The notes beneath the pieces were generated by a model. That model was not told where the DNA came from. It saw nothing but the letters and a program-made list of their open reading frames with translations, and searched no databases. The translations under genes and the position numbers were made by a program. DNA of 52,275 bases from Burkholderiales bacterium (lineage in GTDB: Bacteria > Pseudomonadota > Gammaproteobacteria > Burkholderiales > SG8-39), in assembly GCA_035549805.1 (NCBI GenBank), contig DASZQH010000245.1, forward strand, positions 1-52,275. Direction: 5' to 3'. Shown in pieces: positions 1-8,995 of this stretch (the first letter of the stretch is position 1; every line of letters begins with the position of its first letter).

Positions 1-3000
1 GCTGTCCGGGTCCGAAGAGGTCAACTGACCGCCGGTGCTGAGCGCGGCGTTGGTCTCCGTTACCGTCGCCGTGGCGACGCCGCCGATCACCGTCGCGTCA
101 TCCGTGCCGTTGATCGTCACCGTCACCACTTGCGAGGTGCCATCCGCGGTCGTGACCGTGAAGCTGTCGGTCACCGTCTGGCCGGCAGCAAGGTTGTTCA
201 GGGCGGAGCCCGTCGTGTAGGTCCACGCCCCGCTCGCGTCCACGCTGAAGCTGCCGTAGCCGTTGCTGCCCGCAACACCCGCCTGGACATTGAAGGCGGC
301 GCTGGAGTCAGGATCGCTAGAGGTGAGCTGGCCGCCCGTCGACAGGACCGAGTTCGTCTCCGACACCGTCGAAGTCGCCACCCCTCCGATCACTGTCGCG
401 TCGTTTACCGCGGTCACGTTGATCGTGGACGTGACCGTGTTGGAGTTGGCCGCGCTGTCGTTGATCACGAAGCTGACCGTGCGCGCCGATGTGCTCGGAT
501 TGTCCGAGCTGTTGGAATACTGCACCGCACGCAGCGCCGCCTGCCATTGCGCCACCGTCGCCGTATTCCCCGCCGACGAGAGCGTCATAACGCCCGTCGT
601 CGCGTCGTAGCTGCCGGCGATGTTGCCCATCGTCCCGGGGTTGTTCGTGTAACTCAGGACATCCTGGCCGGACTGGAATCCGCCCGTGATCGACACCGTC
701 GCGCCCGACAGCGTCGCGTTATCCGGGTCCGAAACCGTGATCGACGTATTGACCGCCGTGGCGGCGCCGTTCTCCGTGTAGTTCAGCGTACTGCCAGTCG
801 CGAGCACCGGTGCATCGTTAACCGGCGCGACATCCACGGTGATGGTGTTCGGAGCCGCGTCGAAGGTCGACCCGTCGCGCACGCTGAACGTGAAGGAGGC
901 GTACGACGCTCCGTTCGCGTTCGCCGCGGGCGTGAAGCGAAGGCGATTCGCGCCGATGTCCGCCGCGCTGATCACCTGTCCCGAGCTGACCGCTGTCCAA
1001 TTCCCGCTTCCCGTCGTGTCGTACTGGAGTGCTCCGGCAGCCGGAAGGCTGTCGATCCTCACGGCCCCGAGCGTGTCCGCGGAATCGACGTCGCTGAAGC
1101 CGAAGTTCGCCGCCGCAAAGACGTGCGGGGTGTCTTCGCTGGTCGTGACCGTTGCATCGGTGCCCGTGGGGGCATCGTTGACCGGAACGACGTCGATGGT
1201 ACTGACCGCCGTATTGCTCCAGACATTGGTCGTGTCCCGGACGCTGACCTCCACCAAGCGGGCCACGCTGCCCGGATCATCGCCGGTGTTGCTGAACCGG
1301 ATCGCCTCGATGGCGGTCTGGTAGTTCGCCTTGCTGGAGGAGCCGATGAGGACGAGCGTCGTCGAGGTGGAAGACGCGTCGAGCGTAATCCCCCCGGGGA
1401 GCGCACCGGCGATCGTGAGCTGGTCTCCCGCCTGCGCGTTGCTGATGGTGATGACGGCACGGTTGATGTTGGTGCCGTCGTCCGTGACGATGGTATCGGT
1501 GTCGGCAATAGCGACAGCGGCGCCGTTTTCCGTGTAGGTGGTGGCATGACCGCTAGGCTCGGCGGTCACCGTGACGTTGTCGATGTACAGGAACTCGTTG
1601 CTGTCGAAGTTCGCCGCCAGCCGGAAGCGAATGACGGTATTTGCGGACTCGTAGCCGCTGAGACTGACGGTCTGGGTGCCGGTGACGTCGTTCTCGTAAG
1701 TCGCGAGCGTCACGAAGCTGTTGCCGCCGTCGCTCGACACCTCCACCACGTAATCGTCGGCGTTGTCGAGGTTGCCGCTGCTCGACAGGGCGAAAGACAG
1801 GCTGGCATTGATATGCCTCGAGAGGTCGATGGCGCGCGAAATGCTGCCGCGCGAGGCCGCCGTCCCGCCATCGTTGTTGCCCGTGTCCGTGAGGCGAATC
1901 GCGTAGTTCGTGCCGGCCACCGGCGTATCGACGATCTGGACGTCGCCCTCCGAGGCGCTCTGCGCCGCGCCCTCGGGGTCGTTTTCGACCCAGTCGCTGC
2001 TCCAGGGCACGGCGCCCCCAGAGGCGCCGGCGTAGGAAACGCCGGCCAGCGTGTCGCTCGCCGTCTCGTTGGCCGTGCTGTCGTTCAGGTCCACCCGCGG
2101 CGGCGTGGTCGCGGTCAAGTTGATCGTGACGTTGTCGCTGTCGCTCAGCGCGCCATCCGAGGTGACGAGGCTCAGCGTCGCCGCACCCGTGTAGCCCGTA
2201 TTCGGCATGAACTGCAGGCCGTTGAGCGCCGCATTGATGTCCGCCGTGGAACCCGAGAACGTCATCGTCGAGTCGTTCGTCCCGTCTCCCGTGGTGAACG
2301 TCAGCCCGGTCATGCCGGAGAGGGTCAGCCGGCCGTTGGTCGCGCCGAGCGTGACCGTCAGCGTGCCGCTGTCGACATCCGAAACGCTGATCCCGTTGCC
2401 GTAGGCCGTGCCGAACACCAGCGGGGCGTTGGATGCCGCAGCCTGCGCGCCCGGCACCGTGTTCAGCGGCGCGTCGTTGACGGGCAGCACCGTGATGTCC
2501 ACCGTGTCCGAGTCGGTCAGCGTCCCACCGGCGCCGCTCGAGCCGAGATCGCTCGTCAGGATGGTCAGCGTGTCGCTCCCGACGAAGTCGGGCGACGGGT
2601 CATAGCTCATGCCGCTGAGCGCGGCGTTCACGGCCGCCTGCGTACCGGTAAACGTCATCGTTGCGCTGCCGTTCGCTCCGGCATTGAACGTCAGCCCGGC
2701 GGTTCCGGAGAGCGAAAGGGTGCCGTTGGCGACAGAAAGCTGTACCTGGACGGTGGCCGCATCCGGGTCGGAGACGCTGATCAGGTTGCCGTTGCCGCTG
2801 GAGAACACCAGCGCGGTATCCTCGTTGATGCTCTGCGCCGCCGGGACGGAGTTCCCGGGAGCGTCGTTCAGCGCGCTGAGCGCGATGGCGCTTGTCGCGA
2901 CGTTTCCTTCCGTGCCGCCCGAGTCGACCAGGCTCGCCCCGACATAAGCCGTGTCTCTCGTCCCGGCGACGGTAGGATCGTCGCCGGCGTTGCTGTATCG

Positions 3001-5190
3001 GATCGTGTTGATCAGGTCCTGGTAAGCGGTCTTCGATGCGGTACCCGTCAGCGTAAGCACGCCGGTCCCTGCGTCGTAGGAGGCAGTGATGCCGGAGGCG
3101 CTGGCGACGGTCGCGTTCCAGGTGAGCTGGTCGCCGGCGGCGAAGTTCTGGACCGTGACGCGCCCGCTCGCCATGTTCGTCGTGTCCGGATCCGTGATCA
3201 GCGAGCTCGCGGATGCCGCGATCAGCACCCCCGTCGCGTCCCCCTCGGTATACGCGTTCGAGGAGCCGGTCGGCTGGGCGCTGACCTGGAGGTTGTCGAC
3301 GTAGAAGTATTCGTCCGCGGCGCTGAGGCTCGTGGTGCCGGAGACCCGGAAACGGATCACGGTGTTGGTCGACTCGTAGCCCGCGATGTCGATTGCCTCG
3401 GACGTCAGCGTCGTCATGTTGCCCGAGTAGGTCTTCAGCAGCGTGAAGTTCGCCCCCCCGTTGCGGGAGATTTCCAGCACCACCGAATCGCCGCTCTCAA
3501 GCGTATTCGACGTCATGTAGTCGAACGTCAGCACGGAGTTGGAGTACGCCGACAGGTCGATTTCACGGCTCGCGCCGGTGTAGTGGGCGGCGGTAGTAGT
3601 GTTGTTCAGGCGCAGCGCGTAGTTCACCGCGGCCGTGGGATCGCGGTCGACCACTTGCACCTTCCCGCCCGTCGCGCCGCCCCCGGTGTTGTCGGTCTCG
3701 ATCCAGTTCGTGGTCCAGGGAATCGCCCCGCCGCTCGCGTTGGCGTAGCTCTGGGTCGCAAAGCCGTCGCTCACGGCCTCGGGACTCGTGCTGGTCGAAT
3801 CGAGGTCGAGGATGGGCGGATTGAGCTGCGTGCCCATGAAGGTGATGTCGTGCAGCGTCACAAGCGTGACGTTCGGGTTCCCGCTGTACGTGAAGGACAC
3901 CGTGCGGATGTCGTTCACGTTGAAGTAGACGTACACGTTACCGTTCGACGACGTGGCGCCGCCGTCCGTGCCGGTGCCGCCCACCGTCACGCTGGTTCCC
4001 GAGCCCGGAGTGCCGGCGGTGATGGAGTTGAACGCGCTCGTGGCGACCTGCGTCGGCGAGATGACGGTGCCGTCGGCCAGCGTGGCGGTGAACTGGGCCG
4101 CCTCCGCGTTGTCCACGTCGAAGAGCGAGAAGCCCACGTTGCTTACGCTGCCGCCGGGCTGGGCGCTGAAATCCATCGTGATGGTGTTCGAGCCGGTCCC
4201 GCCCACGACGAACTGCAAGGCGTTCTGCGCCGGCGAGAGGCCGCCGGTGTAGTTCGACGCGAGCGTCGGATTGCCATTGGCCGCGGCGTCGAGCGTGAGC
4301 GTGACGTCGTAGCCGTCGACTGTATAGGTCTTGCTGAGGCCGGAAGTCCAGGTGCTCACGGTGTCGAAATCCAGCGTGCGAAGCGCCATGACATCGCGCC
4401 AGGCGTCGCGCGCGTCGGCGGACACGGCGATGTCGGTCTCGATCGAGCCGGTCCGGCGCTCGAGGTCCCAATCGCCGCCGAGCGACGCGTGACCCGTCGC
4501 GTCGTCGCTCGACGCGACGTCCGCGCCGGTGAGCTGCGCGAGCTGCTGTGCCACGGCCTCGCCGGCCGCACCCTTGCCGAAATCGCAGCCGTAGATGAGC
4601 AGATCTGCCTCGGCGCTGAGGTGCGCCTTGAGCACCGCGAGGTCCGCGGCGTAGGTGTTGCCCAGCGTCGTCGCGTTCAGCACGCTCGAGCCGAAATTGA
4701 GCTGGCCCTCGGTGCCATGGGAAATCAGGTGGATCGCGTCCAGCGAGTCGTATTGCTTCACCACCTCGAGCATCTGCTTGACGCCATCCTTCGCCGGGTC
4801 GAGAAGGACGACGCGCGTGTTGGTGGTGTCGATGCCGTCGATCAGCTTCTGGAAGTCGCGTACCGACACGTCGACGAAGACGATTTCCTGGCGCACCTCT
4901 GCCGCGGTGCCCTCCGCAATGAGGCGCTCCGCCTCGCTCGCCTGCTTTTCCGCGGCCGGCTTCTGCGCTGGCCCTTCCGATTGCGCTGCCTGAGGCGACG
5001 CGGGCGCGACCGGCGCGTCGGTCGTCGCCTCGCCGAGCATGACCTGCGTCGCCTTGACCCCGAGGTCGATGCCGAGCGCGCCGTCGAAGAGCATGCGCGG
5101 CTCGAGCGCGATCATGCGGGTGCGCCGGCGGGGCACCACGGCGGCTTTGCGCTTGGCGGTCGTGGGCTTGGCTTCTTTGCTCTTGGACAT
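1..5190 (-). CDS. Giant repetitive adhesin-like protein (N-terminal 1730 aa; 3' end runs off the window): DUF4347-type N-terminal domain, cadherin-like NDAP-linked repeats, VCBS-like repeats
   Basis: Not in the ORF track because no stop lies in the window. Reverse-complement reading from ATG at 5190 (GAGGT 7 nt upstream) gives MSKSKEAKPTTAKRKAAVVPRRRTRMIALEPRMLFDGALGIDLG. It continues with EIVFVDVSVRDFQKLIDGIDTTNTRVVLLDPAKDGVKQMLEVV...AIHLISHGTEGQLNFG...ATGHASLGGDWDLE, which is DUF4347-like (about 4441-4890). Further on come repeated VNDAP linkers, SFTFSVRDG, and at the window edge VVTVTINGTDDATVIGGVATATVTETNAALSTGGQLTSSDPDS. No minus-strand ORF fragment is listed in this frame across 5.2 kb, which fits one open frame. 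I translated about 15 segments by hand, not every codon. Confidence 0.85.
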   Translation of the reverse strand, partial: MSKSKEAKPTTAKRKAAVVPRRRTRMIALEPRMLFDGALGIDLGVKATQVMLGEATTDAPVAPASPQAAQSEGPAQKPAAEKQASEAERLIAEGTAAEVRQEIVFVDVSVRDFQKLIDGIDTTNTRVVLLDPAKDGVKQMLEVVKQYDSLDAIHLISHGTEGQLNFGSSVLNATTLGNTYAADLAVLKAHLSAEADLLIYGCDFGKGAAGEAVAQQLAQLTGADVASSDDATGHASLGGDWDLERRTGSIETDIAVSADARDAWRDVMALRTLDFDTVSTWTSGLSKTYTVDGYDVTLTLDAAANGNPTLASNYTGGLSPAQNALQFVVGGTGSNTITMDFSAQPGGSVSNVGFSLFDVDNAEAAQFTATLADGTVISPTQVATSAFNSITAGTPGSGTSVTVGGTGTDGGATSSNGNVYVYFNVNDIRTVSFTYSGNPNVTLVTLHDITFMGTQLNPPILDLDSTSTSPEAVSDGFATQSYANASGGAIPWTTNWIETDNTGGGATGGKVQVVDRDPTAAVNYALRLNNTTTAAHYTGASREIDLSAYSNSVLTFDYMTSNTLESGDSVVLEISRNGGANFTLLKTYSGNMTTLTSEAIDIAGYESTNTVIRFRVSGTTSLSAADEYFYVDNLQVSAQPTGSSNAYTEGDATGVLIAASASSLITDPDTTNMASGRVTVQNFAAGDQLTWNATVASASGITASYDAGTGVLTLTGTASKTAYQDLINTIRYSNAGDDPTVAGTRDTAYVGASLVDSGGTEGNVATSAIALSALNDAPGNSVPAAQSINEDTALVFSSGNGNLISVSDPDAATVQVQLSVANGTLSLSGTAGLTFNAGANGSATMTFTGTQAAVNAALSGMSYDPSPDFVGSDTLTILTSDLGSSGAGGTLTDSDTVDITVLPVNDAPLNTVPGAQAAASNAPLVFGTAYGNGISVSDVDSGTLTVTLGATNGRLTLSGMTGLTFTTGDGTNDSTMTFSGSTADINAALNGLQFMPNTGYTGAATLSLVTSDGALSDSDNVTINLTATTPPRVDLNDSTANETASDTLAGVSYAGASGGAVPWSSDWVENDPEGAAQSASEGDVQIVDTPVAGTNYAIRLTDTGNNDGGTAASRGSISRAIDLSRHINASLSFALSSSGNLDNADDYVVEVSSDGGNSFVTLATYENDVTGTQTVSLSGYESANTVIRFRLAANFDSNEFLYIDNVTVTAEPSGHATTYTENGAAVAIADTDTIVTDDGTNINRAVITISNAQAGDQLTIAGALPGGITLDASSTSTTLVLIGSSSKANYQTAIEAIRFSNTGDDPGSVARLVEVSVRDTTNVWSNTAVSTIDVVPVNDAPTGTDATVTTSEDTPHVFAAANFGFSDVDSADTLGAVRIDSLPAAGALQYDTTGSGNWTAVSSGQVISAADIGANRLRFTPAANANGASYASFTFSVRDGSTFDAAPNTITVDVAPVNDAPVLATGSTLNYTENGAATAVNTSITVSDPDNATLSGATVSITGGFQSGQDVLSYTNNPGTMGNIAGSYDATTGVMTLSSAGNTATVAQWQAALRAVQYSNSSDNPSTSARTVSFVINDSAANSNTVTSTINVTAVNDATVIGGVATSTVSETNSVLSTGGQLTSSDPDSSAAFNVQAGVAGSNGYGSFSVDASGAWTYTTGSALNNLAAGQTVTDSFTVTTADGTSQVVTVTINGTDDATVIGGVATATVTETNAALSTGGQLTSSDPDS
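1555..2095 (-). repeat. Adhesin internal module A2 (about 180 aa); paralogue of A1
   Basis: Hand translation: VDLNDSTANETASDTLAGVSYAGASGGAVPWSSDWVEND...NYAIRLTD...RAIDLSRHINASLSFAL...VVEVSSDGGNSFVTLATYEN...VSLSGYESANTVIRFRLAANFDSNEFLYIDNVTVTAEP. Confidence 0.7.
2110..2868 (-). repeat. Two tandem ~125-aa cadherin-like units inside the adhesin (2483-2868 and 2110-2482)
   Basis: Unit 1: NDAPGNSVPAAQSINEDTALVFSSGNGNLISVSDPDAATVQVQLSVANGTLSLSGTAGLTFNAG...TMTFTGTQAAVNAALSGMSY. Unit 2: NDAPLNTVPGAQAAASNAPLVFGTAYGNGISVSDVDSGTLTVTLGATNGRLTLSGMTGLTFTTG...TMTFSGSTADINAALNGLQF. Confidence 0.75.
3265..3815 (-). repeat. Adhesin internal module A1 (about 180 aa, beta-sandwich-like); paralogue of module A2
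   Basis: Hand translation: LDLDSTSTSPEAVSDGFATQSYANASGGAIPWTTNWIETDN...NYALRLNN...REIDLSAYSNSVLTFDY...VVLEISRNGGANFTLLKTYSG...IDIAGYESTNTVIRFRVSG...DEYFYVDNLQVSAQP. It aligns with A2 through SYAxASGGAxPW, NYAxRL, RxIDLS, GYESxNTVIRFR and ExxYxDNxxV. Confidence 0.7.
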
Positions 5191-5198
5191 GCGTTACC

Positions 5199-7412
5199 TC
5201 AGAGTCCGCTCTCGCGGATCAGCACGGAAAGAATTCGGTAGACGAAGTTTTCGACGACGAAGCGGAATCCGGTGTCGATGCGGACGCTGCCGTGCACGAC
5301 GGCGTTCGCCGAGGCCACGTCGCCGTGCGGCCGGACGAGGACGCGGAATACGGCGTCCTGCGCTACCAGCGCACCTCGCGCGCCCTGCTTTACCGCGACG
5401 TCCCCGCCGTAGATCGAGGCGAGAAGCGGCCGCGACAGCTCCTTCTGCGGCGATTTGTCGACGGACACGACCTCTCCGGTCAGGGTCGGGCGGTCAGGCA
5501 GCTTCGGATAGAACCGCACCACCTGGCCCGGCTCGATCGCGGCCACCTGCCGCTCGCCGACGTACGCCTCGATGAGCTGGTCGGAATCGGAGACGACGCG
5601 CATCAGGAGCTGGCGAGGCCCGACCCAGCGGCCGGCGACGAGATCAGGCGCGAGGTCCCGCACCCGCCCCCCCTGCGGTGCGCGCAGGTGCTGGCGCGTG
5701 TACTCGTCGAGCACGGCCTGCTTCTCGACGAGTCCCTGCGCGAGCCGTTCCTGCATCACCTTGTAGTTTTCCTGCAGCCGCACGCTCGCCGGCATGCGCG
5801 CGAGCTCGACCCGGGCAGAGGCAATCGCGATCTCCGCTTTCTTCAGGCGCACGTCCAGGTCCACCGCCTCGAGGCTGACGAGCTCCGCATCGGCGCCCAC
5901 CTCGTCCCGGTCGGCGACCCGCACCGCGACGACGCGGGCCGGGAACGGGGCGTAGACCGCGTGCTCCTGCTGCGCGCGCAGGATCGCGGGCGCCGTGACC
6001 GTGTTGGAGATCGGGACGATCCACATGAAGGCGAGCAGCACCGCGACGAGCGCCGCGGCCGGACGCCAGGCGATGCGCACTTCCTTGCGTTGCTTCCAGA
6101 GATACGCGAGCTCGGCATAGACCGGCTTGGCGATGAACCAGACCAGCTCCAGGACCATGAGGAACAGGCCCAGCAGCTTGAAGAACATGTGGTACACGAG
6201 CACCGCGATGCCGAGAAAGATCGTCAGGCGGTACAGCCAGGTGATGTACGCGAAGACGATCAGCCCGGCACGCTGGCGCGGCGTCAGGGTCGGCTCCGGC
6301 TGGGGCTCCTGCAGGCGGAAGAAGGTGCGGCGCAGCCAGTTCTTCGCCAGCGCGCCGCTGCGCTCGTGCAGGTTCGGGAAGTCGATCAGGTCCGAGAAGA
6401 CGAAGTAGCCGTCGAACCTCATGAACGGGCTGAGGTTGATCGCGAGCGTCATGATCCACGTCGTGCTCGCGAGGACGAAGAAAACGTTCTTCGCCGCGCC
6501 CTCCGGCGACAGCGCCCACAGCAGGGTCGAGAACACCGCCAGCACGAGCTCGGCACCCATGCCCGCGCAGGCGATGACGAGCTGCTTGCGGCGGTCCCCG
6601 AGCTTCCACGTCTCGCCGGTGTCCGTGTACAGGAACGGCCAGAGCACCAGGAAGGCCACGCCGAGCGTCGGGACCCGCACCCCGTAGCGCCGCGCGGCGT
6701 ACGCATGCGCGAGCTCGTGGATGATCTTGGAGAAGGTCACCGCCACGGCGTAGTAGAGGAACGCCGCCGGCGTGAGCATGCGCCCCATCGCCTCGGTGAA
6801 GCTGTACCACTCACGCGACAGCAGGTAGAGGTCCAGCCCGAGCAGGATCAGCACCAGCAGCACGAAGCCGCGCGTGAAGAAGATGTCCGTCAGCCCGACG
6901 GTCCTGGCGAGGAACGCGTCGGGGCGCACGAGCGGAATCCGGAAGAACAGGTAGCCGTGCAGCAGTTGCTGGTGCCACGACTGCCTGGAAGCTTCGCGAC
7001 GCCGCTTGAGCGCTTCGACGGCGGCGGCGCTGCCGGCGGCGAGCAACTGGTTTTGCGCGAGGAACGAGATCAGGTCCTTCACGTCGTCGGTGCTGGGCCT
7101 CAGCGGCGTTTCTGTGCCGACGCGCGCCACCAGCGTCTCGGCATCCGGCGCCTCGCGCCAGCGCGCGAGGAGCTCGAACTCGAGCCAGCCGATCTCGAAA
7201 AATGCATTGCGTACCGCATCGTGGATGCGCCACGTCGGCGAGCCGTCGCGCGACGTAGCACCGGGGTACAGACGAAGGTCTTCGCGCAGCGCCGGAAGCT
7301 CTGCGGTGGATTTCTTCGCCTCGGTTACCGGACCCTTGGCCCTCGGGTCGTTCACGTGCTTATCCCCCTGTCCCTTCGACCTCGGCGGGCGTCCCCGTCG
7401 AAGCAACGACAT
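5199..7412 (-). CDS. Fusion protein: M50/site-2-protease-like polytopic membrane domain + C-terminal HlyD-type membrane-fusion (periplasmic adaptor) domain
   Basis: 737-aa ORF with GGAGGGG 4 nt upstream of ATG 7412. HELAH lies at nt 6705-6719, and NLSPFMRFDGY supplies the NxxPxxxxDG third-ligand motif of M50 proteases. Multiple hydrophobic segments are present. The C-terminal ~260 aa (AILRAQQEHAVYAPFPARVVAVRV...coiled coil...IEAYVGERQVAAIEPGQVVRFYP...LTGEVVSVD) looks like the lipoyl/coiled-coil/beta-barrel of HlyD adaptors. The stop is 8 nt before the adhesin ATG. Confidence 0.8.
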   Translation of the reverse strand: MSLLRRGRPPRSKGQGDKHVNDPRAKGPVTEAKKSTAELPALREDLRLYPGATSRDGSPTWRIHDAVRNAFFEIGWLEFELLARWREAPDAETLVARVGTETPLRPSTDDVKDLISFLAQNQLLAAGSAAAVEALKRRREASRQSWHQQLLHGYLFFRIPLVRPDAFLARTVGLTDIFFTRGFVLLVLILLGLDLYLLSREWYSFTEAMGRMLTPAAFLYYAVAVTFSKIIHELAHAYAARRYGVRVPTLGVAFLVLWPFLYTDTGETWKLGDRRKQLVIACAGMGAELVLAVFSTLLWALSPEGAAKNVFFVLASTTWIMTLAINLSPFMRFDGYFVFSDLIDFPNLHERSGALAKNWLRRTFFRLQEPQPEPTLTPRQRAGLIVFAYITWLYRLTIFLGIAVLVYHMFFKLLGLFLMVLELVWFIAKPVYAELAYLWKQRKEVRIAWRPAAALVAVLLAFMWIVPISNTVTAPAILRAQQEHAVYAPFPARVVAVRVADRDEVGADAELVSLEAVDLDVRLKKAEIAIASARVELARMPASVRLQENYKVMQERLAQGLVEKQAVLDEYTRQHLRAPQGGRVRDLAPDLVAGRWVGPRQLLMRVVSDSDQLIEAYVGERQVAAIEPGQVVRFYPKLPDRPTLTGEVVSVDKSPQKELSRPLLASIYGGDVAVKQGARGALVAQDAVFRVLVRPHGDVASANAVVHGSVRIDTGFRFVVENFVYRILSVLIRESGL

Positions 7413-7466
7413 TGTCCCCTCCGTGCACCCGGAGGTTTGCTAATTTTGGTCATGATAGGATGCCGG

Positions 7467-7508
7467 AAAATTCAAGCGGAGCAAATACTTAACTCGTAAA
7501 ATTCAAGC
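7467..7508 (-). promoter_or_regulatory. AT-rich promoter island with perfect 11-bp direct repeat AAAATTCAAGC (7467-7477 and 7498-7508; GCTTGAATTTT on the coding strand), 31 bp apart
   Basis: Read directly from the sequence. It lies 55-96 bp upstream of the M50-HlyD ATG. Local GC is far below the window average. On the minus strand TTGTCA-N17-TTGAAT overlaps the distal repeat. Confidence 0.45.
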
Positions 7509-7594
7509 TTCGCTAGAGATTGCTGACAACTTCCCCCAATCACGCGTGCAAGGTAGCGCGCCCGTGGGCCTCCGGAAATCGGGGAAAACCTCAG

Positions 7595-7634
7595 AAAATC
7601 AGGGAGAAACCCTGAGTCGCCCGCTACTGCGGGC
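7595..7634 (-). terminator. Candidate intrinsic terminator(s) after cysS
   Basis: On the minus strand, GCCCGC-AGTA-GCGGGC (7619-7634) abuts the TAG stop. It is followed by TCAGGG-TTTCT-CCCTGA (7599-7615) and then TTTTCT. The stems are short (6 bp). Confidence 0.4.
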
Positions 7635-8995
7635 TAGCGGCGCCGCCAGGTCGTGGTCCCGCCGCCGTCCTCCAGGACGATGCCCTTTTCGAGCAGGTCG
7701 GCCCGTATCCGGTCTGCCGCGGCGAAGTCCTTCCGGCCACGAGCGGCGTTGCGAGCGGCGATCCGGGCTTCGATCCAACCTTCGTCGACCCCCGCGCTTC
7801 CGCCGCGCAAGAACTCCATCGGATCGCGTTGGAGGATCCCCAGCACACCGCCCAAAGCCCTCAGCTGCGCGGATGCCTCGGCACGACCCTGAAATGCCTC
7901 GTTCGCGAGCTCATGCAGGACGGCGACGGCTTCCGGCGTCCCGAAGTCGTCATCCATGGCCTCCCGGAAGCGCTTGCCGGAGGGACTCTCCCAGTCCGGC
8001 GCCGCGGCCCCTCCGGTCACCTGCCTGAGGGCGGTGTAAAGCCGCGTCAGGCCTTGCCGGGCGTCCTCGAGGTGCGCGTCGGAATAGTTGAGCGGGCTCC
8101 GATAGTGCGCTCGCAGGATGAAGAAGCGCACGACTTCGGCATCGAACCGGACGAGGACGTCCCGGATCGTCGAGAAGTTGCCAAGAGACTTCGACATCTT
8201 CTCGTCGTCCTTGCGGACGAATCCGTTGTGGATCCAGTAGCGCGCGAACCGGGCACCCGTCGCGCCTTCCGACTGCGCGATCTCGTTCTCGTGATGCGGG
8301 AACTGCAGATCCTGGCCGCCGCCATGGATGTCGAACTCGTCGCCGAGCAGGGAGCTCGACATCGCGGAGCACTCGATGTGCCAGCCCGGCCGCCCGCCGC
8401 CCCACCGGGAAGGCCAGCTCGGCTCTTCGGGCTTGGAATGCTTCCAGAGGACGAAATCGAGCGGATCCTCTTTCGTCGCGTCCACTTCGACTCGCTCTCC
8501 GGCGCGCAACTCGTCGAGCGACTTCCCGGAAAGCTTGCCGTAGCCGGGAAAGCGCCGCACCGCGTAGTTCACGTCGCCGGAAGCCGCGGGATAGGCCAGA
8601 CCGCGCTCCTCGAGCCGGCCGATGAGCTCCAGCATCTGCGGAACATACTGCGTCGCTCGCGGCTCGTGGTCGGGCTTCTGCACGCCCAGGGCAGCGGCAT
8701 CTTCATCCATGAAGCGGATGAAGCGATCGGTGAGCGCCTGGACCGGCTCGCCGTTCTCGCGCGCGCGCCGGATGATCTTGTCGTCGATATCGGTGATGTT
8801 GCGGACGTAGGTGACCCGATAGCCGCTGGCGCGCAGCCAGCGCTGCACCACGTCGAAGACGACGAACATCCGCGCATGACCGATGTGGCAGTAGTCGTAG
8901 ACGGTGATACCGCACACGTACATGCGCACCTCGCCGGCGCGCAGCGGCACGAATTCCTGCTTGCTGCGGCCGAGCGAGTTGTAGATCTTCAGCAT
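7634..8995 (-). CDS. cysS: Cysteine--tRNA ligase
   Basis: 453 aa; [17 protein letters not shown]..., HIGH-type CHIGHARM and KMSKS motifs. Confidence 0.96.

Follow-up and report, generated by a model that had tools for sequence, protein, structure and literature searches.

A site-2 protease fused to a membrane-fusion protein, and its proposed place in a five-gene envelope module with giant adhesins

What is an intramembrane protease doing in the same polypeptide as a periplasmic adaptor, immediately in front of a gene for a giant adhesin? The question is raised by a 52,275-nucleotide stretch of DNA from a Burkholderiales bacterium (assembly GCA_035549805.1, contig DASZQH010000245.1, positions 1 to 52,275), which we call the window. 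On its minus strand, the gene at 5199..7412 encodes a 737-residue protein that joins an N-terminal domain, likened below to a RiPP recognition element (RRE; RiPP, ribosomally synthesised and post-translationally modified peptide), to a site-2 protease (S2P, family M50) membrane core and a HlyD-type membrane-fusion protein (MFP) domain. With moderate confidence, we propose that this fusion is the inner-membrane subunit of a five-component envelope module, whose N-terminal domain would bind a leader, whose S2P core would cut it and whose MFP domain would join a TolC-family duct. For the genome of the window, the module is deduced from relatives. A first reading of the DNA without database searches (below, the sequence-only reading) had singled out the same gene, and we state where our results bear on its claims.

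A protease core fused to a periplasmic adaptor

The fusion gene starts at an ATG preceded by a GGAGG Shine-Dalgarno sequence 6-7 nt on its 5' side. Hydropathy and the helices of an AlphaFold model assign about seven transmembrane helices to the polytopic S2P core (residues ~170-470; 6003..6905, minus strand); the long hydrophobic helices of the model comprise residues 181-200, 215-242, 274-301, 306-326, 378-409, 412-440, and 449-465. The zinc-binding and catalytic motif HELAH (residues 232-236; 6705..6719, minus strand) sits within helix 215-242, and NLSPFMRFDGY (residues 326-336; 6405..6437, minus strand) contains the Asp expected to be the third zinc ligand. The sequence-only reading had described a 737-residue, three-part open reading frame (ORF) with these two motifs, HELAH being placed at 6705-6719, and the coordinates match exactly. 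Its assignment of both domains is borne out by profile searches: Peptidase_M50 (PF02163) scores 36.4 bits against a Pfam cutoff of 27.2 (E 4.5e-9), and HlyD_3 scores 43.9 bits against 22.2 (E 4.4e-11). HlyD_D23, at 23.5 bits, falls under its cutoff of 30, and TIGR01843 (type_I_hlyD), at 21.1 bits, under its cutoff of 208.65.

The MFP domain (residues 471-737; 5202..6002, minus strand) consists of a lipoyl-like part, a short α-hairpin (helices 519-539 and 546-572), a β-barrel and a C-terminal helix ending in RESGL, as delineated by HlyD_3, Foldseek and profile comparisons. The C-terminal half of the model matches EmrA, MacA, MexA, ZneB, and Spr0693 (Foldseek E 1e-11 to 1e-12). A profile of the whole family, compared with the sequences in the PDB, finds both halves of the protein: HlyD (8dck, 2.6e-13) and the archaeal S2P MjS2P (3b4r, E 1.2e-4). 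The seven model helices, taken together with the K/R-rich loops at residues 243-273, 337-377, and 441-448 and the positive-inside rule, would orient the protein with its MFP domain in the periplasm and with the N-terminal domain and the two zinc motifs facing the cytoplasm.

Across 47 diverse members of the family, His232, Glu233, His236, Asn326, Phe333, Asp334, and Tyr336 are invariant, and Pro329 and Gly335 are kept in at least 90%. The invariance of the catalytic residues suggests that the protease is under selection as an active enzyme, and zinc-dependent proteolysis is the activity predicted for the fusion protein.

This architecture proved to be common. An exact look-up of the window protein gave no record, but a word-indexed search screened 8,000 candidates and returned 5,792 homologues, more than 5,700 of them full-length; the best 120 are 683-737 residues long and 67-93% identical to the window protein. 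Their source databases name them 'putative peptide zinc metalloprotease protein' (JGI), 'HlyD family efflux transporter periplasmic adaptor subunit' or 'site-2 protease family protein'. When representatives of clusters at 50% identity were scanned exhaustively with HMMER, 11,440 clusters matched at E<=1e-3, 7,030 at 1e-10, and 2,818 at 1e-30. The lengths in the top 150 clusters are 682-741 residues in 144 cases and shorter in six, at identities of 33-48%. The three-part architecture is, on sequence evidence, ancestral. At nine loci, fusion ORFs of 821-1,136 residues had the appearance of additional fusions; we rejected them as ORF-calling artefacts with Arg-rich out-of-frame extensions.

A recurrent five-gene module without a linked transporter

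The neighbourhood of the fusion gene was analysed in relatives. Scanning one genome per species gave 571 loci, of which 80 were kept; neighbour counts rest on our own ORF calling and all-against-all BLASTP clustering. The 80 loci span Alpha-, Beta-, Gamma-, and Zetaproteobacteria, Nitrospira, Scalindua, Magnetococcales, and Desulfobacterota. Only four neighbour families recur among them: three that we label C1, C2, and C3, and giant ORFs. C2 is a protein of ~520 residues with a Pfam OEP domain (TolC family; E 1e-29 to 1e-31) and a lipoprotein-like signal. C3 is a small MFP of ~260 residues with a signal peptide (TIGR01730, 119 bits, above cutoff). C1, of ~450 residues, has a cytoplasmic domain of ~190 residues followed by one transmembrane helix and an MFP domain. 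The cytoplasmic domain of C1 matches no Pfam family, and a GAF-like appearance that we had considered for it was dropped as unsupported.

By tblastn, the N-terminal domain of C1 adjoins the fusion gene in 68 of the 73 loci with enough flanking sequence, and C2 and C3 are present in 52 and 53 of 69 loci, respectively; where they are missing, the giant gene mostly fills the available flank. Giant ORFs of at least 900 residues occur in 48 of the 80 loci. Most often the genes share one strand, overlap or abut, and run in the order giant, C2, C3, C1, fusion. Permuted orders are C2-C3-C1-fusion-giant (Nitrospira and others) and C2-C3-x-giant-C1-fusion, where x is a further gene. Across several phyla, homologues are strongly linked to giant proteins, in line with the sequence-only reading, and also to envelope-duct genes, namely a TolC-family gene and two further MFP genes. 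The picture that this reading drew of the fusion as a lone stand-in for a type I secretion adaptor has to be given up, since two of its four companions in the module are paralogous MFPs.

In the clade of the window, the order fusion then giant is constant, and the upstream neighbour varies (cysS or an unrelated gene). The partner families C1, C2, and C3 have no tblastn match in the window. The most complete relative, locus L005 (49% identity), has a TolC-family gene 3' of a giant gene of 2,887 codons, and on this model the other partners of the window probably lie beyond the 3' end of the adhesin gene, past the left edge.

No transporter gene belongs to the module. An ORF with both a Walker A motif and an ABC (ATP-binding cassette) signature was found in 8 of the 80 loci only, never at a conserved position, and no canonical type I system of ABC transporter, MFP and outer-membrane protein accompanies the module. 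The sequence-only reading had noted the lack of an ABC exporter or TolC gene between cysS and the adhesin gene. No RND (resistance-nodulation-division), MFS (major facilitator superfamily) or PET transporter family is recurrent among the neighbours of the 80 loci, and the 52-kb window has no ORF with ABC-ATPase motifs. On plasmid p2 of Azospirillum argentinense Az39, the annotated genes run DUF4347 protein, Ig-like protein, TolC family, 'RND adaptor', HlyD, HlyD, and the 20 kb to each side contain nothing that resembles a transporter.

The most compact example is found on an E. coli IncFIA/FIB plasmid (NZ_CP081687.1, our locus L088), where at 44.8-64.6 kb the five genes stand alone between ISKpn26 and IS1. 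They encode a 4,459-residue 'Ig-like' protein, a TolC-family protein, an 'RND adaptor', and two 'HlyD family' proteins, and include no ABC transporter; the last protein, of 710 residues, is 36% identical to the window fusion. Among 5,426 complete E. coli genomes, 24 carry the cassette at >=99% identity; plasmids account for 21 of the 25 matched places, and the module is also found on Citrobacter, Hafnia, and Kosakonia plasmids. The five-gene cassette is evidently mobile among enterobacteria. A search of E. coli DNA with the Phytobacter gene gave no match; the E. coli copies turned up via the N-terminus of the adhesin.

Some further features of the relatives may be recorded here. The fusion protein (window 5202-5270, minus strand) and the C1 MFP (L026:8629-9984, L010:8628-9989) share the same kind of end, a helix followed by R-[EQ]-x-G-[LFWI]. 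Examples of this tail in the two families are RESGL, REGGF, RQWLGW, and REWSGL, and standard adaptors have no such tail. Beside some modules there are genes for phage-tail-collar-like 'tail fiber' proteins, a GNAT acetyltransferase and a sulfotransferase-like protein (L083:5036-7885, L065:1621-2493, L016:1137-1985), which might modify or accompany the giant protein. Upstream of the module, three Nitrospira loci (L030, L053, and L071) share five to six additional genes as a conserved block, including one for a protein of ~620-640 residues whose N-terminus looks by eye like that of a B12-binding radical SAM enzyme.

The giant partner, its leader and the proposed mechanism

In the window, the giant adhesin-like gene is represented by its 5' part (1..5190, minus strand), 1,730 codons that remain open to the window edge; orthologues are up to 7,193 residues long. 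The junction with the fusion gene reads ...CTC TGA GGTAACGC ATG. The TGA of the fusion gene is at 5199-5201, the spacer is 8 nt, and the ATG of the adhesin gene is at 5188-5190. The Shine-Dalgarno sequence of the adhesin gene, GAGGT (5196..5200, minus strand), overlaps the TGA, so that the tight arrangement described in the sequence-only reading can be read directly from the DNA. The junction between fusion and giant is equally tight in relatives (10-26 nt). Domains recognised in the visible part of the adhesin are DUF4347 (PF14252, residues 103-267; 4390..4884, minus strand; 176 bits, E 6e-52), Cadherin_4, Big_9, and Reelin_subrepeat-B (Pfam), as well as VCBS (NCBIfam). All three complete partner giants that were tested contain DUF4347 together with Ig-like domains.

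The N-terminus of the adhesin has a basic stretch (residues 13-25) followed by LEPRMLFDGA (residues 29-38; 5077..5106, minus strand). An alignment of N-termini shows the same arrangement in all partner giants whose N-terminus is visible: a variable basic stretch and then LLALE[P/S/A/Q]R[I/M/L][M/L]FDGAA, which we refer to as the leader motif. The set comprises the window, 25 loci found with a strict pattern, locus L009 (one substitution), the E. coli plasmid and Azospirillum. Leu, Glu, Arg, Phe, and Asp are invariant in the 26 N-termini that bear the motif; Leu, Glu, and Arg were fixed by the search pattern, Phe and Asp were not. The only NCBIfam match to the leader motif is a weak one to LEPR-XLL (NF012209; 14-15.5 bits against a cutoff of 17, E 0.01-0.03). 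We considered export of the giant by the Sec pathway and rejected it: the partner N-termini have no Sec-like hydrophobic core, the median of their maximal 15-residue Kyte-Doolittle values being 1.15.

The basic segment varies in both length and sequence. It could be taken to hint at signalling by intramembrane proteolysis, in which the basic N-terminal peptide, once cut from the giant by the S2P, would act as a signal in the cytoplasm and other components would take care of export. Classical S2Ps release cytoplasmic effectors, and the segment before the leader motif is strongly basic in the window adhesin and others. In some partners, for example L048 and L057, it is nearly absent, however, and no transcription factor is conserved nearby. 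We give this explanation hardly any credence.

A counterexample from Phaeobacter inhibens helps to separate the leader from the domain that follows it. A plasmid-encoded DUF4347 protein of this organism (L089:14989-20166) starts directly with DUF4347, lacks the leader, carries classical C-terminal GGxGxD repeats of the RTX (repeats-in-toxin) type, and has no module nearby. GGxGxD repeats are absent from the visible 1,730 residues of the window adhesin and from the three complete partner giants. With respect to secretion, there are thus at least two types of DUF4347 protein. It appears that the leader, rather than DUF4347, tracks with the S2P-MFP module, and the leader seems to replace the RTX/ABC route, as far as this one contrast family goes.

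Two other conserved parts of the giants deserve mention. Most of 38 aligned giants, and the E. coli protein, have a motif G[RK]xS[LF]xxQ[LI]xxA 20-60 residues from the C-terminus (for example L016:2058-9482, L026:225-6305, L088:19956-33335), which could be a second signal or an anchor. Within DUF4347, the motifs [IL][IL]SHG and D[IL]LxYGC are conserved in the window adhesin and 23 other aligned N-termini; Cys202 is present in 22 of these 24 sequences, and His158 in 18, with Glu in its place in five. The SHG...YGC pair is reminiscent of the His/Cys dyad of the caspase fold, and by this analogy the domain might be a self-processing protease.

The adhesin is the likely substrate of the fusion protein, because the partner giants share an N-terminal leader motif and because the module genes overlap, with no space between them to encode a small precursor. 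The sequence-only reading had suggested secretion-coupled processing or controlled release, either of the adhesin or of an unseen peptide. The first half of this suggestion is supported and extended by the relatives, with a mechanism deduced from them; the unseen peptide is disfavoured.

If the leader is cut by the fusion, the domain that recognises it may be the N-terminal one (residues 38-128; 7029..7301, minus strand). In the full-length model this domain has strands at residues 47-50, 61-65, and 70-74, followed by helices at 76-83, 91-101, and 108-120, with block mean pLDDT (model confidence) values of ~65-89. The order of three strands and three helices is that of PqqD-like RREs. Arg43, Asp65, and Leu123 of the domain are invariant, and Trp61, Trp85, Phe117, and Leu118 nearly so, among relatives that are 33-48% identical. 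The best curated match of the fusion is to the NCBIfam family of daptide intramembrane metalloproteases (NF041824, daptide_HExxH), with 136.8 bits over residues 67-425, and a Phytobacter member of the family reaches 166 bits. In the daptide enzyme, an RRE domain is fused N-terminally to a site-2 protease, which cuts off a leader with the short conserved motif ELExMEAP (doi 10.1101/2023.03.08.531785). The sequence-only reading had speculated that the N-terminal region might be a recognition module; the match to the daptide RRE-S2P family and the β3-α3 order of the model make it plausible that the domain is a leader-binding, RRE-like module, and the tests of the isolated domain, given below, are not significant.

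The same matches might be thought to point to a peptide system, in which the fusion processes and exports a small RiPP or bacteriocin precursor in the manner of YydH/LiaK or the daptide protease, and the giant gene is merely a neighbour. The JGI name of the homologues, with its 'peptide zinc metalloprotease', would fit. The scores for the daptide and YydH/LiaK families are far under the family cutoffs, however; the overlapping or abutting module genes leave no space for a precursor gene, RiPP-modifying enzymes and an ABC exporter are not conserved nearby, and the leader-bearing giant is the constant partner across phyla. A peptide system is very improbable.

Our proposal for the module is as follows. 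Its five components would be the leader-bearing DUF4347 giant, the TolC-family outer-membrane protein, the small MFP, the MFP with a cytoplasmic N-terminal domain, and the RRE-like/S2P/MFP fusion. The cytoplasmic N-terminal domain of the fusion would capture the leader of the giant, and the S2P site, facing the cytoplasmic side of the membrane, would cut at or just after the leader motif. The periplasmic MFP domain of the fusion and the two paralogous MFPs would form an adaptor ring and dock on the TolC-family channel. Removal of the leader would in this way be physically coupled to the passage of the giant through the duct, or to its release from it, in a system without an ABC transporter of its own. 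Four elements of this scheme are inferred: that the protease acts on the leader, that the N-terminus of the fusion is inside and its C-terminus outside, that the MFPs and the TolC-family protein form a mixed assembly, and that export is coupled to cleavage.

Several results weigh against this proposal. The matches to NF041824 are below the 300-bit cutoff of that family and are driven by the membrane core. The N-terminal domain alone matches nothing in Pfam or NCBIfam, and a profile built from 34 diverse N-terminal domains has zero matches at E<=10 among PDB sequences. An AlphaFold model of the isolated domain (pLDDT 74) has a secondary structure unlike that in the full-length model, and a Foldseek search with it gave nothing significant; the best hit has an E of 1.4, and PqqD (3g2b) is third at E 1.5. 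The full-length model itself, calculated from 55 homologues, is of moderate quality (pLDDT 69.7, pTM 0.42). The window shows only two of the five module genes, the fusion and the 5' part of the giant. Finally, no source of energy for moving a protein of several thousand residues is evident in the module, and export by an unlinked ABC transporter or some other route is a possible alternative.

Two explanations differ on how the giant would be exported. In the bolder one, the module would suffice on its own to secrete giant adhesins, independently of ABC transporters, with the S2P-MFP fusion as both inner-membrane entry point and leader peptidase. The LALEPRxMFDGA leader would take the place of a C-terminal RTX signal, and the giant would leave the cell N-terminus first, possibly during translation, through the mixed MFP ring into the TolC-family channel. 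Instead of a dedicated ATPase, folding on the outside of the cell might provide the driving force. We regard this as a tentative extension of our proposal, and doubtful in this complete form. In the other, the module is a switch between retention and release, modelled on the control of LapA by LapG and LapD: an unlinked type I ABC system would export the giant C-terminus first, the fusion would hold its N-terminus at the inner membrane and so tether the adhesin through the MFP-TolC duct, a cut by the S2P would free the adhesin, and the cytoplasmic domain of the C1 MFP would sense the signal. Such a switch would account for the lack of an energiser in the module; the conserved C-terminal motif of the giants could then be a secretion signal, and the conserved cytoplasmic domain of C1 could be regulatory. 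The complete partner giants lack RTX repeats, however, no LapG- or LapD-like genes are recurrent among the neighbours, and 72 of the 80 loci as well as the mobile E. coli cassette have no linked ABC gene, so that a suitable host system would be needed in every recipient. We consider a release switch unlikely, but it is the foremost alternative.

Another conceivable role is housekeeping of the duct. S2P enzymes such as RseP clear remnant signal peptides, and by analogy the fusion might clear leftover leaders or stalled N-terminal fragments from the translocation site. The conserved active site and the tight linkage of the fusion gene to the duct genes are as expected for this role. The scheme needs another enzyme for the first cut, however, and no such protease is conserved in the module; the SHG...YGC pair of DUF4347 might possibly make this cut. 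Housekeeping alone is an improbable function, and we retain the coupled processing of the leader as our preferred explanation.

Surroundings of the pair, related systems and significance

Upstream of the fusion gene there is an AT-rich region (7400..7550, minus strand), with 45-47% GC compared to 66-70% around it. The sequence-only reading had described the pair as standing alone behind such an island. The island was confirmed; the solitude of the pair exceeds what the window can show, the adhesin gene running past position 1. The region is presumed, from its composition and position, to hold the promoter of the fusion-adhesin pair. It contains no match to the sigma-70 consensus. A direct repeat, GCTTGAATTTT, occurs twice in it, at 7475 and 7506 (minus strand), 31 nt apart and just upstream of the fusion gene. 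The repeat could be the site of a regulator; it is not conserved in the upstream regions of loci L001 and L004-L006. A short ORF beginning ATGACCAAAATTAGC... (7414-7455, minus strand; ~33 codons by eye) lies in another frame, with its start 40 nt before the ATG of the fusion gene, and overlaps the start of that gene; it is probably meaningless.

A terminator-like hairpin with a T-run (7599..7615, minus strand), found by a terminator scan, separates the pair from cysS (7634-8995, minus strand; PF01406, E 2e-132), and the remaining window genes that we examined are housekeeping genes. Two long ORFs on the plus strand, 130-5241 (1,703 residues) and 5292-7499 (735 residues), were rejected as antisense mirror ORFs of the adhesin and fusion genes, because all domain support is on the minus strand and mirror ORFs are typical of DNA with 65-70% GC.

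Among characterised systems, the daptide protease MpaP (NF041824) resembles the fusion in having a soluble N-terminal domain followed by an M50/S2P core, and it removes a leader with a short motif conserved at the N-terminus, as the fusion would on our proposal. It lacks an MFP domain, however, and its substrates are peptides of ~25 residues encoded in Gram-positive RiPP clusters together with modifying enzymes, whereas the partner of the fusion is thousands of residues long and belongs to a module of a diderm envelope. RseP, SpoIVFB, and MjS2P share the HExxH and NxxPxxxxDG motifs in a polytopic core. They differ from the fusion in having PDZ or CBS domains and in acting on transmembrane regulators; the fusion has an N-terminal domain that is, in the model, winged-helix-like, and a C-terminal MFP domain, and its presumed substrate segment is not a hydrophobic transmembrane helix.

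A parallel to the proposed logic is offered by peptidase-containing ABC exporters such as CvaAB-TolC for colicin V, in which the exporter itself contains the protease that recognises and cuts the N-terminal leader, and an MFP provides the link to TolC. The module has a zinc-dependent S2P instead of a C39 cysteine peptidase, the protease is fused to the adaptor instead of the transporter, and there is no ABC domain. By analogy, the Gly-Ala end of the leader motif resembles the double-glycine-type sites of peptidase-containing ABC exporters. HlyB-HlyD-TolC has in common with the module the MFP fold, the TolC-family partner and giant, repetitive Ig/cadherin-like cargo. Unlike that system, the module has three different MFPs and an N-terminal leader, no linked ABC transporter, and partner giants without an RTX-type C-terminus. 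More than one MFP paralogue per outer-membrane factor is also a feature of TriABC-OpmH, suggesting a mixed adaptor ring; TriABC includes an RND transporter, whereas the module has three MFPs and no known transporter. The LapA/LapG/LapD system, finally, is similar to the proposed scheme in that the N-terminus of a giant adhesin is targeted by a dedicated protease at a TolC-type duct, and possibly in the use of a regulatory cytoplasmic domain. The cysteine protease LapG is soluble and periplasmic, LapD serves as a receptor for cyclic di-GMP, and export is by the LapBC ABC transporter and MFP; the module contains none of these.

A full-text search of the literature, whose coverage leaves most subscription journals outside, gave no description of an S2P-MFP fusion, of the module or of the leader. 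Reviews of tripartite systems and adaptors do not mention the fusion, apparent 'M50' matches in reviews were residue numbers or DOIs, and a 2026 preprint on giant proteins turned out to deal with unrelated systems. The kinds of component are all known; the combination and the absence of a transporter appear to be new.

The transport of giant surface proteins across two membranes is understood mainly for the ABC-driven type I secretion of RTX adhesins. The module described here differs in combining giant, leader-bearing proteins of a non-RTX type with a TolC-family channel, three adaptors and an intramembrane protease, all without an ATPase, and it is conserved across several phyla. Adhesins affect biofilm formation and host colonisation, and the cassette on IncF plasmids of E. 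coli makes the question of its function testable in a standard laboratory host. A module that works alone would open a new export route for proteins and give site-2 proteases a further task; a module that is not self-sufficient would still provide at least a new step in the processing or release of adhesins.

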